Assembly: GCF_003334305.1 (NCBI RefSeq)
Contig: NZ_QOWS01000001.1
DNA from: Escherichia coli
GTDB taxonomy: Bacteria; Pseudomonadota; Gammaproteobacteria; Enterobacterales; Enterobacteriaceae
Strand: one strand, 5' to 3'
Length of the DNA: 64,000 nucleotides
Below, piece by piece: positions 1-9,000 of this stretch (its first letter is position 1; each line of letters begins with the position of its first letter). Made by a program: the position numbers.

Positions 1-3000
1 GCGCGGATGGGGCTGGCGGTACTGGTGGACCAGGAAAACTGTCTCAACTTTCAGGGGCTGCGCTGCGATGTTTGTTATCGCGAATGCCCGAAAATTGATG
101 AGGCCATCACCCTGGAGCTGGAGCGCAACACGCGTACCGGTAAGCACGCCCGCTTTCTGCCGACGGTTCACAGCGACGCCTGTACCGGTTGCGGTAAGTG
201 CGAAAAAGTATGCGTGCTGGAACAACCGGCAATCAAGGTGTTACCGCTGTCACTGGCGAAAGGGGAGTTAGGTCACCATTACCGCTTCGGTTGGCTGGAG
301 GGGAACAATGGCAAATCGTAAACGTGACGCCGGGCGCGAGGCGCTGGAGAAAAAAGGCTGGTGGCGCAGTCACCGTTGGCTGGTGTTACGTCGCCTTTGT
401 CAGTTCTTCGTGCTGGGGATGTTTTTGAGCGGTCCATGGTTTGGTGTGTGGATCTTGCACGGCAACTACAGCAGTAGCCTGTTATTCGACACCGTTCCGC
501 TGACCGATCCGCTGATGACGCTGCAAAGTCTTGCCAGTGGTCATCTGCCTGCCACGGTGGCGTTGACCGGTGCGGTGATTATCACCGTGCTCTACGCCCT
601 GGCGGGAAAGCGATTATTTTGCAGCTGGGTCTGCCCGCTGAACCCGATTACCGACTTAGCGAACTGGTTACGCAGGCGCTTTGACCTCAATCAGTCTGCG
701 ACGATCCCTCGCCACATTCGCTACGTGCTGTTGGTGGTCATTCTGCTGGGATCGGCCTTAACTGGCACGCTCATCTGGGAATGGATCAACCCCGTATCTC
801 TGATGGGGCGCAGCCTGGTAATGGGCTTCGGCAGCGGCGCGCTGCTTATTCTCGCGCTGTTTTTATTTGATCTACTGGTCGTTGAACACGGCTGGTGCGG
901 GCACATTTGTCCGGTTGGCGCGCTGTATGGCGTGCTGGGTAGCAAAGGTGTGATTACCGTTGCGGCCACCGATCGGCAGAAATGTAACCGCTGTATGGAT
1001 TGTTTTCATGTTTGCCCGGAACCGCATGTGCTACGTGCCCCGGTGCTGGATGAACAAAGCCCGGTGCAGGTCACCAGCCGCGATTGCATGACGTGCGGTC
1101 GCTGCGTGGATGTCTGTTCTGAGGATGTATTTACAATAACTACACGATGGAGTTCGGGAGCGAAATCATGAAAAGCCATGACCTGAAGAAAGCGCTGTGT
1201 CAATGGACGGCGATGCTGGCCCTGGTGGTAAGCGGCGCGGTTTGGGCGGCTAATGGCGTCGATTTTAGCCAGTCGCCGGAAGTATCCGGGACACAGGAAG
1301 GGGCCATTCGGATGCCAAAAGAGCAGGAACGGATGCCGCTGAACTATGTGAATCAGCCGCCAATGATCCCGCATAGCGTTGAAGGTTATCAGGTAACGAC
1401 CAATACCAACCGCTGCTTGCAGTGCCACGGTGTCGAAAGTTATCGCACCACTGGCGCGCCGCGTATCAGTCCTACTCACTTTATGGACAGCGACGGCAAA
1501 GTGGGCGCGGAAGTGGCTCCGCGTCGTTATTTCTGTCTGCAATGTCACGTACCGCAGGCCGATACCGCGCCAATCGTGGGGAATACCTTTACCCCATCAA
1601 AAGGTTACGGGAAATAAGAGGTTATTATGGGAAATTCTGACCGTAAGCCTGGTCTGATTAAGCGCCTGTGGAAATGGTGGCGTACCCCCAGCCGTCTGGC
1701 GCTGGGGACGCTGCTGTTGATCGGTTTTGTTGGCGGCATCGTCTTCTGGGGTGGCTTTAACACCGGGATGGAAAAAGCCAATACCGAAGAGTTCTGCATT
1801 AGCTGCCACGAAATGCGCAACACGGTGTATCAGGAATACATGGATTCCGTGCACTACAACAACCGTAGCGGCGTCCGTGCGACCTGTCCGGATTGTCACG
1901 TTCCGCACGAGTTTGTGCCGAAGATGATACGCAAGCTCAAAGCAAGTAAAGAGCTGTATGGTAAAATTTTTGGCGTTATTGACACGCCGCAGAAATTTGA
2001 AGCTCATCGTCTGACGATGGCACAGAATGAGTGGCGGCGCATGAAGGACAATAACTCGCAGGAGTGCCGTAACTGTCACAACTTCGAGTATATGGATACA
2101 ACCGCCCAGAAATCGGTTGCCGCGAAGATGCATGACCAGGCGGTGAAAGATGGGCAAACCTGTATTGATTGCCATAAAGGGATAGCGCACAAGCTGCCCG
2201 ATATGCGTGAAGTCGAGCCAGGTTTTTAACAGGGTTATTGCGTGGGTATGCTTGAAGCCAGAGAGTTACTTTGTGAGCGGGATGAACGAACCTTATTTAG
2301 TGGCTTGTCATTTACGCTGAACGCAGGAGAGTGGGTACAAATCACCGGTAGCAACGGCGCGGGGAAGACAACGCTTCTCCGTTTGCTGACTGGGTTGTCT
2401 CGCCCTGACGCTGGCGAGGTTCTCTGGCAAGGGCAGCCCTTGCATCAGGTACGCGACAGCTACCATCAAAACCTGTTATGGATAGGCCATCAGCCGGGGA
2501 TCAAAACCCGGCTGACGGCGTTAGAAAATCTGCACTTTTATCATCGCGATGGCGATGCCGCACAATGTCTGGAAGCCCTGGCGCAGGCCGGGCTTGCCGG
2601 ATTCGAAGATATTCCGGTAAATCAACTTTCTGCCGGGCAACAACGCCGCGTCGCTTTAGCGCGTCTGTGGCTGACCCGTGCCACGTTATGGATCCTCGAC
2701 GAGCCTTTTACCGCGATTGACGTTAACGGCGTCGATCGTCTGACCCAGCGTATGGCGCAGCATACGGAGCAGGGGGGGATTGTGATTCTGACTACCCACC
2801 AGCCGCTCAACGTTGCTGAAAGTAAAATTCGCCGCATTTCACTGACGCAAACGGGGGCCGCATGATGTTCTGGCGCATTTTCCGTCTTGAGCTGCGCGTA
2901 GCGTTTCGCCATAGCGCCGAAATCGCCAACCCGCTGTGGTTCTTCCTGATTGTAATTACCCTTTTTCCGCTCAGTATCGGTCCGGAGCCGCAACTGCTGG

Positions 3001-6000: not shown

Positions 6001-9000
6001 CGTAAACAATGCGCTGTGGTCGCGGGAATCTCTGCTGTTAGCGAACAACGTTTTGCTGGTCGCCGCGATGCTGGTGGTATTACTGGGGACGCTGCTGCCG
6101 CTGGTGCACAAGCAACTGGGACTGGGCAGTATTTCGATTGGCGAACCGTTCTTCAACACCATGTTTACCTGGCTGATGGTGCCGTTTGCGCTGCTGCTTG
6201 GTGTCGGTCCTCTGGTGCGCTGGGGGCGCGATCGCCCACGTAAAATCCGCAATTTATTGATTATCGCCTTCATCTCAACGCTGGTGCTGTCGCTGCTGCT
6301 GCCGTGGCTGTTCGAAAGCAAAGTTGTGGCGATGACGGTGCTCGGCCTGGCAATGGCCTGCTGGATTGCTGTGCTGGCAATTGCGGAAGCTGCGCTGCGT
6401 ATTTCACGTGGCACGAAAACCACCTTCAGTTATTGGGGAATGGTGGCGGCTCACCTGGGGCTGGCAGTGACAATTGTTGGCATTGCTTTTAGCCAGAACT
6501 ATAGCGTTGAGCGTGATGTGCGCATGAAGTCCGGCGATAGCGTCGATATTCATGAATATCGCTTCACCTTCCGTGATGTCAAAGAGGTGACTGGCCCGAA
6601 CTGGCGTGGCGGTGTGGCGACTATCGGCGTAACGCGCGATGGCAAGCCGGAAACGGTGCTGTATGCGGAAAAACGTTATTACAACACTGCCGGGTCGATG
6701 ATGACCGAAGCGGCAATTGACGGCGGCATCACGCGTGACCTGTACGCCGCGCTCGGTGAAGAGCTGGAAAACGGCGCGTGGGCCGTGCGTCTTTACTACA
6801 AACCATTTGTTCGCTGGATTTGGGCGGGCGGGCTGATGATGGCGTTGGGCGGACTACTGTGTCTGTTTGATCCTCGCTATCGTAAGCGCGTGAGTCCGCA
6901 AAAAACTGCGCCGGAGGCCGTATGAAGCGCAAAGTATTGTTAATTCCGTTGATTATCTTCCTGGCGATTGCCGCGGCGCTGCTGTGGCAGCTGGCGCGTA
7001 ATGCCGAAGGGGATGATCCGACCAATCTGGAATCGGCGCTCATTGGCAAGCCTGTGCCGAAGTTTCGTCTCGAATCACTGGACAATCCGGGGCAGTTTTA
7101 TCAGGCGGATGTGCTGACTCAGGGCAAACCAGTGCTGCTTAACGTCTGGGCGACCTGGTGTCCGACCTGCCGTGCGGAACATCAATATCTGAATCAGCTT
7201 TCAGCGCAGGGCATTCGCGTGGTCGGCATGAACTATAAAGACGATCGCCAGAAGGCAATCAGCTGGCTGAAAGAGCTGGGCAATCCTTACGCGCTAAGCC
7301 TGTTTGATGGCGACGGCATGTTAGGGCTGGATCTCGGTGTCTATGGCGCGCCAGAAACCTTCCTTATTGACGGCAACGGTATCATTCGCTATCGCCATGC
7401 GGGCGATCTCAATCCTCGCGTCTGGGAAGAAGAGATCAAGCCGCTGTGGGAGAAATACAGTAAGGAGGCCGCACAATGAGGTTTTTATTGGGCGTGCTGA
7501 TGCTGATGATCTCCGGCTCAGCACTGGCGACCATCGACGTGTTGCAGTTTAAAGATGAAGCACAGGAACAACAGTTCCGTCAGCTCACTGAAGAACTGCG
7601 CTGCCCGAAATGCCAGAACAACAGCATTGCCGATTCCAACTCGATGATTGCCACCGACCTGCGTCAGAAAGTGTATGAACTGATGCAGGAAGGTAAAAGT
7701 AAAAAAGAGATTGTCGATTATATGGTGGCGCGTTACGGCAACTTCGTCACTTACGATCCGCCGTTAACGCCGCTGACCGTGCTGCTGTGGGTGCTTCCGG
7801 TAGTGGCTATTGGCATTGGCGGTTGGGTCATATACGCCCGCTCGCGGCGTCGGGTACGCGTAGTGCCGGAAGCGTTTCCTGAACAAAGCGTGCAGGAAGG
7901 TAAGCGTGCCGGATATATTGTTTATTTGCCGGGCATTGTGGTGGCGTTAATTGTGGCTGGCGTCAGCTACTACCAGACCGGAAATTATCAGCAGGTGAAA
8001 ATCTGGCAGCAGGCCACGGCACAGGCTCCGGCGTTGCTGGACAGGGCGCTGGATCCGAAAGCCGATCCGCTCAACGAAGAAGAGATGTCGCGTCTTGCGC
8101 TGGGGATGCGTACTCAACTGCAAAAAAATCCGGGAGATATAGAAGGCTGGATTATGTTGGGCCGCGTTGGCATGGCGCTGGGTAACGCTAGTATCGCCAC
8201 CGATGCATACGCTACTGCGTATCGCCTCGATCCGAAAAACAGCGATGCCGCACTGGGTTATGCTGAAGCGTTGACACGTTCATCTGATCCCAACGACAAC
8301 CGCCTCGGTGGTGAACTGCTGCGCCAGTTGGTGAGAAGCGACCACAGCAATATCCGTGTGTTAAGCATGTATGCGTTTAATGCCTTTGAGCAGCAGCGAT
8401 TTGGCGAAGCCGTTGCCGCGTGGGAGATGATGTTGAAACTCTTACCTGCCAACGATACTCGCCGTGCGGTGATTGAACGTAGTATCGCGCAGGCGATGCA
8501 ACATTTGTCGCCGCAGGAGAGTAAATAAAAAGAGGCCCGATGGTGATGCCATCGGGCTATTTTTATTGTGCCCCGCGTTGTTGCAGGAACAGAATGGTGG
8601 CTGCCACGCGTGAGCGGACATTGAGTTTGCGCAGCAGATTGCGAATATGTACTTTTACTGTCTGCTCTGAAATATTCAACACCGAGGCAATCTGTTTATT
8701 TGACAGCCCCTGTGCCAGCTCGTGCAGAACATCCAGCTCGCGCTCCGTCAGCACGCTGAAGGGATCTTCTTCCGCGCCAAACATTTCACGTTCACGTAAG
8801 TACTGATTGACGCGTTCGCTAAAGACTTTGCTGCCTTTCGCTCCAGCACGAATTGCTTCCAGCAATACTTCCGGGTCGCTGTCTTTCAACAGATAACCGT
8901 CTGCGCCTGCGTCTATCAGTGCAAAGACATCGCTGGAGGCATCTGATACGGTCAGGATAATAATTTGCGCGGTAACGCCATCCCTGCGCAAGGCATTGAG

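Follow-up and report, generated by a model that had tools for sequence, protein, structure and literature searches.

The ccmABCDEFGH operon in the 64,000-nucleotide stretch of Escherichia coli DNA analyzed here (contig NZ_QOWS01000001.1; hereafter the window) contains six junctions at which neighboring genes overlap by 4 nt (the −4 geometry), each with a Shine-Dalgarno (SD) sequence encoded near the end of the preceding gene, and this arrangement probably directs termination-reinitiation down two chains of genes.

The ccm locus and its six overlaps

The gene order in the window, napG'HBC-ccmABCDEFGH with narP next in convergent orientation, is that of the E. coli chromosome. The ccm region shows 0 mismatches to an annotated RefSeq strain, and the span 2100-8700 has 100% identity with IAI1, EC11 and other E. 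coli. All eight ccm genes are named by RefSeq, in agreement with the gene identities given in the first-pass annotation; the RefSeq CDS bounds coincide with its coordinates, and the ORF list concurs. The genes are as follows.

2242..2865, plus strand: ccmA, heme-exporter ATPase (RefSeq CDS; NCBIfam NF010061 CcmA, 332 bits, cut-off 195)
2862..3524, plus strand: ccmB, heme-exporter permease, TAA stop (RefSeq CDS; TIGR01190, 317 bits, cut-off 156)
3566..4303, plus strand: ccmC, heme-handling WWD protein (RefSeq CDS; TIGR01191, 282 bits, cut-off 186)
4300..4509, plus strand: ccmD, 69 aa (RefSeq CDS; TIGR03141, 67 bits, cut-off 26)
4506..4985, plus strand: ccmE, periplasmic heme chaperone (RefSeq CDS; NF009635, 320 bits, cut-off 264)
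4982..6925, plus strand: ccmF, heme lyase subunit (RefSeq CDS; TIGR00353, 1015 bits, cut-off 569)
6922..7479, plus strand: ccmG (dsbE), thiol:disulfide oxidoreductase (RefSeq CDS; NF011941, 422 bits, cut-off 359)
7476..8528, plus strand: ccmH, TAA stop (RefSeq CDS)

CcmA to CcmG match NCBIfam equivalog or subfamily models above the curated cut-offs, and the N-terminal domain of CcmH matches the NrfF paralogue model with a score under the cut-off; ccmH of E. coli is a fusion of CcmH and CcmI (PMC10457321). The order CcmA, B, C, D, E, F, G, H on one strand is the gene content that defines a System I operon. The cluster is the E. coli set of cytochrome c maturation (System I) genes, and it probably makes up the distal portion of a nap-ccm transcription unit. 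A GC-rich hairpin with T-runs on both strands (8534..8558, no strand assigned), located between ccmH and the convergent narP and the only strong hairpin in the scan, is likely to be a bidirectional terminator that closes this unit, as judged from its sequence. A consensus pattern scan, as distinct from transcript mapping, found no terminator-like or plus-strand promoter-like site at any ccm junction, with counts at the level of shuffled sequences, and scanning the entire window against Rfam returned a tRNA and the L25 leader alone, both distant from ccm.

The overlaps and the SD motifs that accompany them, with duplex energies, are these.

2862..2865, plus strand: ccmA/ccmB ATGA; SD motif GGGGG in the final ccmA codons, −8.6 kcal/mol
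4300..4303, plus strand: ccmC/ccmD ATGA; SD motif AGAGG, −5.8 kcal/mol
4506..4509, plus strand: ccmD/ccmE ATGA; SD motif AGGAGG, −10.3 kcal/mol
4982..4985, plus strand: ccmE/ccmF ATGA; SD motif AAGGA, −5.9 kcal/mol
6922..6925, plus strand: ccmF/ccmG ATGA; SD motif GGAGG, −9.5 kcal/mol
7476..7479, plus strand: ccmG/ccmH ATGA; SD motif AAGGAGG, −12.1 kcal/mol
3525..3565, plus strand: 41-nt intergenic gap between ccmB and ccmC, the sole break in the overlap chain

The first-pass annotation had placed exact 4-nt overlaps at six junctions, and inspection of the sequence and the RefSeq bounds bears this out to the base, ATGA being present at all six; at ccmA/ccmB, for example, the ccmA stop codon TGA occupies 2863-2865 and the ccmB start codon ATG occupies 2862-2864. 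It had also rightly left ccmB/ccmC out of the chain, where the 41-nt gap lies, and we agree with it that overlaps are to be expected in this operon. At A/B and E/F the sequence is ATGATG, so that a −1 start (TGATG; 2865 and 4985) fits the sequence as well as the −4 start, and the second codon of every overlapped downstream gene opens with A (M, T, N, M, K and R).

The frequency of overlaps in ccm exceeds chance. Six of the seven ccm junctions have the −4 geometry, whereas among the 33 other junctions between same-strand genes of the window it is seen once (Fisher p = 1.2e-5), at napH/napB, which is assigned to the same transcription unit as ccm. Genome-wide, 707 of 2,987 unidirectional gene pairs of E. 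coli are spaced between −8 and +6 (PMC10666635); when this total is taken as an inflated upper bound for the −4 rate, the probability of at least six of seven junctions at −4 is still 0.001.

Initiation signals and the proposed route of ribosomes

All six overlapped starts are preceded by a site that pairs with the anti-SD sequence at −5.8 to −12.1 kcal/mol, and in every case the site is encoded by the final 3-5 codons of the upstream gene; −5.8 kcal/mol is reached by a fraction of just 0.109 (10.9%) of ccm coding positions. Weak SD sequences precede the two starts that lie outside the overlaps, namely ccmA (−3.3 kcal/mol), which begins with GTG 12 nt past the napC stop codon, and ccmC (−3.0 kcal/mol). 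A TTG at 3542 was considered as an extended ccmC start that would shorten the gap and was rejected, as it lacks an SD match (−3.1 kcal/mol); the RefSeq start is the ATG at 3566. The consensus scan found no promoter-like or terminator-like site in the ccmB-ccmC gap.

Translational coupling at the ccm overlaps, which the first-pass annotation had proposed, is a reasonable interpretation of these features. A −4 junction with an upstream SD is most readily understood as coupled, this being the standard and best-supported reading, although the overlap itself is not proof. In such a mechanism, a ribosome terminating at UGA would overlie the next AUG, and the ribosome, or at least its 30S subunit, would be retained by the adjacent SD and re-initiate. 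If re-initiation takes place at each overlap, translation would therefore be handed along two chains, from ccmA to ccmB and from ccmC to ccmD, E, F, G and H, with each chain entered by weak independent initiation, at the GTG of ccmA and at the ATG of ccmC past the 41-nt gap. The expected outcome would be membrane components made co-ordinately, at a low level and spatially co-localised; a strict 1:1 ratio across the eight Ccm proteins would not necessarily follow.

Among five native −4 pairs of E. coli that have been assayed, four were coupled and the fifth, bioBF, was translated by de novo initiation; removal of the SD lowered reinitiation in four of the five (Huber et al., 2019, PMC6728339), and coupling is nearly lost at intergenic distances of about 20 nt (PMC10666635). 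We found no coupling measurement for any ccm junction in the literature searched.

It is conceivable, but highly improbable, that coupling operates by mRNA unfolding, in which an RNA structure masking the next ribosome-binding site is opened by the upstream ribosome and a fresh ribosome initiates there, with no re-initiation by the terminating one. This mechanism is documented, for example, for atpHA of E. coli and for genes VII/IX of phage f1 (cited in PMC12548453), and Huber et al. (2019, PMC6728339) proposed that local structure blocks de novo initiation at internal SD sequences. However, no masking RNA structure was detected at the six junctions, where 90-nt windows, which capture local pairing only, are predicted to be no more structured than dinucleotide shuffles (z −0.61 to +2.05). 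At A/B the fold is weaker than in 200 of 200 shuffles, and the centroid structures of these local 90-nt folds do not consistently sequester either the SD or the AUG at the six junctions. By the same local folds, structure that would suppress de novo initiation is absent at all six.

Because folding at the junctions does not exceed that of shuffles, confidence in strict coupling is lowered: with a strong internal SD and average or below-average local structure, free ribosomes could initiate de novo, as at bioBF. Coupling is still compatible with a lack of masking structure, since Huber et al. observed it with no more context than −99 to +30 nt and with variable dependence on the SD. The same observations bear on an explanation that we regard as unlikely, namely that the overlaps are mainly a by-product of gene-boundary evolution with little regulatory effect, and that the ccm genes are translated chiefly de novo from their own strong SD sequences. 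Such overlaps could arise easily, since an ATG needs just one further base to become ATGA, an upstream gene that loses its stop codon is readily extended to the next TGA, and compaction favors the geometry; a 2025 review credits the abundance of −4 spacing largely to its ease of evolving (PMC12548453), which may account for part of its occurrence here. The good SD sites, the unmasked junctions and the uncoupled bioBF pair (PMC6728339) are consistent with this explanation. However, strong SD sequences are located at the overlapped starts and weak ones at the free-standing starts, the reverse of what independent initiation predicts, and the coupling of four of the five assayed E. coli pairs also argues against the by-product explanation.

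Conservation of the junctions and the ccmB/ccmC gap

The arrangement of overlaps is a conserved, non-obligatory trait of proteobacterial ccm clusters. Our census covers at least 120 ccmF loci from alpha-, beta- and gamma-proteobacteria among the matches listed; starts were assigned heuristically and −4 was scored whenever possible, so that the relative-frame statistic alone is free of that bias. Among the matches listed, −4 spacing was scored at A>B in 17/27, C>D in 8/16, D>E in 13/20, E>F in 52/85, F>G in 44/75, G>H in 47/67 and H>I in 14/17 junctions, that is, in 50-82% by junction with B>C set aside. At these same junctions, among the matches listed, 75-94% of the downstream genes lie in the sole relative frame that allows −4 or −1, where chance would give 33% (binomial p 1e-4 to 1e-16). 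The B>C junction, for which the cross-species figures come from our own locus scan, is the exception among the matches listed: −4 was scored in 3/33, the frames are uniform (p = 0.7), and the genes do not overlap in 28/33 other proteobacterial loci. Consistent with the census, the medians over 1,695 genomes in the portion of Table S4 of PMC10666635 available to us are −4 for A>B, −1 for C>D, −4 for D>E, −1 for E>F, and −4 for F>G, G>H and H>I.

This pattern, among the matches listed, is difficult to reconcile with the by-product explanation in that the bias is junction-specific and conserved; because one junction, B/C, is spared, a purely neutral process is disfavored. Other features weigh against the coupling reading and accord with the by-product one. 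About 20-50% of homologous junctions among the matches listed, varying by junction, are neither −4 nor −1, many with a short gap in place of the overlap; the overlap is therefore dispensable. In addition, for four of the six overlaps the two gene products are not known to belong to one complex. Termination-reinitiation down two chains nevertheless remains the reading that we favor.

The complex membership of the proteins also bears on stoichiometric expression, the second half of the interpretation offered in the first-pass annotation and the weaker one. While the gene identities and the 4-nt overlaps underlying that interpretation are sound, stoichiometry is supported only in part: of the six overlapped pairs in the curated E. 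coli list of Huber et al. (2023), A/B and C/D are marked as subunits of one complex, whereas D/E, E/F, F/G and G/H are curated as "not". CcmF and CcmH are reported to form a complex; their genes are not adjacent. The stoichiometry of CcmABCD itself is disputed, (AB)2CD or (ABCD)2. A close balance of CcmA and CcmB makes functional sense, since surplus CcmB effluxes heme and is harmful (PMC11868835).

Since the B/C gap is conserved (28/33 among the matches listed), the B/C frames are uniform and the ccmC SD is weak, the operon might be divided for translation into a ccmAB module and a ccmCDEFGH module, both entered via a deliberately weak independent start, with the conserved gap as the sole point that sets the ratio of the ABC-transporter core to the remaining machinery. 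We consider this proposal, of which no statement was found in the literature searched, speculative and rather doubtful. Such a design could reflect an (AB)2:CD stoichiometry or a need to keep free CcmB low, surplus being harmful. The conserved ccmB/ccmC exception is a small, testable hint as to how the CcmAB:CcmCD ratio is set, a ratio relevant to deciding between (AB)2CD and (ABCD)2.

The ccm overlaps were already known, as Huber et al. (2023, Front Microbiol 14:1291523, PMC10666635) tabulate every ccm distance together with cross-species medians. They are minor as a discovery and correctly explain the gene coordinates of a very well studied operon. In ccm genes, premature stops probably exert translational polarity on the genes that follow.

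Comparison with known systems

The locus corresponds to ccmABCDEFGH of E. coli K-12 (b2201-b2194; Huber et al., 2023, PMC10666635 Table S2), with the same genes and the same distances, −4, +41, −4, −4, −4, −4 and −4; the nap distances agree too (napC/ccmA +12, napB/napC +9 and napH/napB −4; PMC10666635 Table S2). There is no substantive difference, the window being from a different E. coli strain.

With the −4 (NTGA) termination-reinitiation pairs described previously (PMC6728339; reviewed in PMC12548453), the ccm junctions share the ATGA geometry and an SD located in the 3′-terminal part of the upstream gene. The E. coli pairs assayed elsewhere are hyfHI, astDB, ydbH/ynbE, menDH and bioBF, none from ccm; the ccm operon also differs in combining six −4 junctions, one at ccmA-ccmB and five in series from ccmC to ccmH.

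The ccm, hel and cyc clusters of other Proteobacteria have mainly −4 or −1 at the same junctions and mainly a gap at B/C, according to the census among the matches listed and, for the medians, the available portion of PMC10666635 Table S4. They differ in that some are split, F leading straight into H and CcmH and CcmI being separate, and in that GTGA, TTGA and −1 variants and short gaps are present. Few match E. coli in the number of overlaps: among the matches listed, only four of the loci with at least seven scorable junctions reach at least six at −4. The nrfEFG genes of E. coli, which encode a paralogous heme lyase and include paralogues of ccmF and ccmH, are similarly tightly packed, with nrfF/nrfG at −4, but nrfE/nrfF has a spacing of −8 in place of −4, and the two genes have no ccmG-like gene between them.

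Organization of the ccm locus and its junctions

The DNA is chromosomal and comes from Escherichia coli: over 2100-8700 it has 100% identity to several complete genomes, a match to this segment occurs in 5,426/5,426 E. coli genomes of the collection, and the ccm region shows zero mismatches to the RefSeq-annotated strain among these identical genomes. In RefSeq, the + strand carries napG', napH, napB, napC, ccmA, ccmB, ccmC, ccmD, ccmE, ccmF, dsbE (ccmG) and ccmH, followed by the convergent narP. CcmA to CcmG were confirmed by NCBIfam models with scores above the curated cut-offs, and CcmH takes its name from RefSeq, its N-terminal domain matching the paralogous NrfF model below that model's cut-off. 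The locus is a K-12-type ccm operon, and the gene bounds implied by the first-pass annotation are exactly those of the RefSeq CDSs.

That annotation had listed ATGA start/stop overlaps (-4) at six junctions, and direct inspection found overlapping ATG and TGA at 6/6; ccmB/ccmC was correctly omitted, because a 41-nt gap lies there.

Junctions of the ccm genes (overlaps by direct reading)
2862-2865, +, ccmA/ccmB overlap, ...ggccgcATGAtg...
3525-3565, ccmB/ccmC, the seventh junction, 41-nt gap; ccmB stop is TAA
4300-4303, +, ccmC/ccmD overlap, ...ccgtaaATGAcc...
4506-4509, +, ccmD/ccmE overlap, ...ggctgcATGAat...
4982-4985, +, ccmE/ccmF overlap, ...gcatcATGAtg...
6922-6925, +, ccmF/ccmG overlap, ...ggccgtATGAag...
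7476-7479, +, ccmG/ccmH overlap, ...gcacaATGAgg...

At the six overlaps, TGA is the stop of every upstream gene and the downstream ATG begins one base earlier; the downstream second codon starts with A in all six, because the -4 geometry demands it. ATGATG at ccmA/B (2862-2867) and ccmE/F (4982-4987) offers both a -4 and a 1-nt overlap (-1, TGATG), so the -1 start is equally available and sequence alone cannot choose the ATG; the annotated ccmB and ccmF starts are the first.

Within the window, -4 junctions make up 6/7 in ccm versus 1/33 elsewhere on the same strand (Fisher p = 1.2e-5; annotation of the second half taken from a 99%-identical collinear strain), the single exception being napH/napB of the same transcription unit. 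With an inflated rate taken from all E. coli unidirectional pairs between -8 and +6 (707/2,987; Huber et al. 2023, PMC10666635), the probability of at least six of seven ccm junctions is 0.001. Upstream, napG/napH overlap by 14 nt (308-321) and napH/napB by 4 nt (ATGA, 1168-1171), and the napB/napC and napC/ccmA gaps of 9 and 12 nt fit the separate E. coli class of spacings of about +10 nt (Huber et al. 2023, PMC10666635).

Elsewhere, yejO (autotransporter, about 9530-12121) is a pseudogene with an internal stop in the annotation of a 99%-identical reference strain. Across the 64 kb of the window, Rfam models matched only twice: a tRNA at 12228-12301 (-), annotated tRNA-Pro, and an L25 ribosomal protein leader at 16017-16042 (-), upstream of rplY. 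An internal paralogous match of about 80% identity (44344-45665 and about 41157-42477) corresponds to psuT and nupX, both NupC-family nucleoside transporter genes.

Junctions across Proteobacteria

One genome per species was searched for the CcmF WGGWWFWDPVEN coding pattern, which gave at least 120 loci from alpha-, beta- and gamma-proteobacteria; Ccm homologues were placed by tblastn and every junction was classified.

Junctions of the -4 class among the loci listed
A>B, 17/27, plus 5 at -1
B>C, 3/33
C>D, 8/16
D>E, 13/20
E>F, 52/85
F>G, 44/75
F>H, 15/24
G>H, 47/67
H>I, 14/17

Among these loci the class comprises ATGA, GTGA and TTGA, ATGA being commonest. Because start-codon choice in other species was heuristic and leaned to -4 wherever possible, the relative reading frame, which is independent of start choice, was also used. 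Among the loci listed, the downstream frame was the only one fitting -4/-1 in 75-94% of cases (33% expected; binomial p 1e-4 to 1e-16) except at B>C, where frames were uniform (10/13/10, p = 0.7) and gaps mostly exceeded 20 nt; ccmB and ccmC did not overlap in 28/33 loci. For seven of these junctions, a census of 1,695 genomes (PMC10666635, Table S4) agrees with these counts, giving medians of -4 for A>B (n=464), D>E (n=231), F>G (n=380), G>H (n=373) and H>I (n=362), and -1 for C>D (n=238) and E>F (n=507).

The overlaps are expected for this operon, and the finding is already known, because Huber et al. (2023) published both every E. coli distance given here (Supplementary Table S2) and the cross-species medians. 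The one point for which no earlier statement was found is the conservation of the ccmB/ccmC gap and its coincidence with the weak, independent starts of ccmA and ccmC.

Ribosome binding sites and possible coupling

A Shine-Dalgarno match precedes all six overlapped starts, lying within the 3'-terminal codons of the preceding gene (GGGGG, AGAGG, AGGAGG, AAGGA, GGAGG and AAGGAGG), with duplex energies to the 16S 3' tail of -5.8 to -12.1 kcal/mol; only 10.9% of ccm coding-region positions reach -5.8. The weakest matches of the operon are at the two non-overlapped starts, ccmA (-3.3 kcal/mol) and ccmC (-3.0 kcal/mol). The ccmA start is GTG 2242 (RefSeq; MGMLEAR...), 12 nt past napC; an in-frame ATG lies two codons in at 2248, and neither has a good Shine-Dalgarno match. 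Together with the conserved gap, these weak starts suggest two translational modules with a ratio set at ccmC, a tentative reading that we consider rather unlikely.

Coupling at the overlaps is plausible, and we infer termination-reinitiation as its most likely mechanism. A ribosome terminating on UGA would already sit over the next AUG, and the adjacent Shine-Dalgarno motif may retain it for reinitiation, so that translation would be handed from ccmA to ccmB, and from ccmC through ccmD, ccmE, ccmF and ccmG to ccmH. Among native E. coli -4 pairs of other genes, 4/5 were coupled, and Shine-Dalgarno removal lowered reinitiation in 4/5 (PMC6728339); coupling was nearly lost when the stop codon was placed about 20 nt farther upstream (PMC10666635). 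No experimental test of any ccm junction was found in the literature searched.

Folds of 90 nt around the junctions were no more stable than dinucleotide shuffles (z -0.61 to +2.05), structure at ccmA/B being below all 200 shuffles, and thus give no sign of structure masking internal ribosome binding sites. Coupling through unfolding of mRNA structure is therefore very improbable, as far as local 90-nt folds can tell. Strong Shine-Dalgarno sites at unstructured junctions would allow each gene to initiate independently, as seen for bioBF, and a 2025 review attributes the abundance of -4 junctions probably to their ease of evolving and regards them as not exceptional for coupling (PMC12548453). 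However, that the overlaps are near-neutral by-products of independently initiating genes seems unlikely, because conservation is junction-specific, sparing B/C while all other junctions are biased, and because Shine-Dalgarno sites are strong at overlapped and weak at free-standing starts.

A scan detected no promoter-like or terminator-like site at any ccm junction or in the B/C gap. Its one strong hairpin (8534-8558; 11 bp, GC-rich, T-runs on both strands), 3' of ccmH and facing narP, looks like a bidirectional terminator shared by these convergent genes.

Stoichiometry and comparison with nrf

Stoichiometric expression, also proposed in the first-pass annotation, is supported in part: it fits A/B and C/D, whose products are partners within CcmABCD, but not D/E, E/F, F/G and G/H, which Huber et al. 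curated as non-complex pairs (PMC10666635). CcmABCD has been reported as (ABCD)2 (PMC10457321) and, by citation, as (AB)2CD (PMC9616876). CcmB in excess leads to heme efflux and is harmful to the cell, which gives a rationale for the A/B overlap specifically, and the authors of that study themselves tie gene order to correct stoichiometry (PMC11868835). In the K-12 paralogues of the ccm genes, nrfE/F/G, the junctions are -8 and -4.
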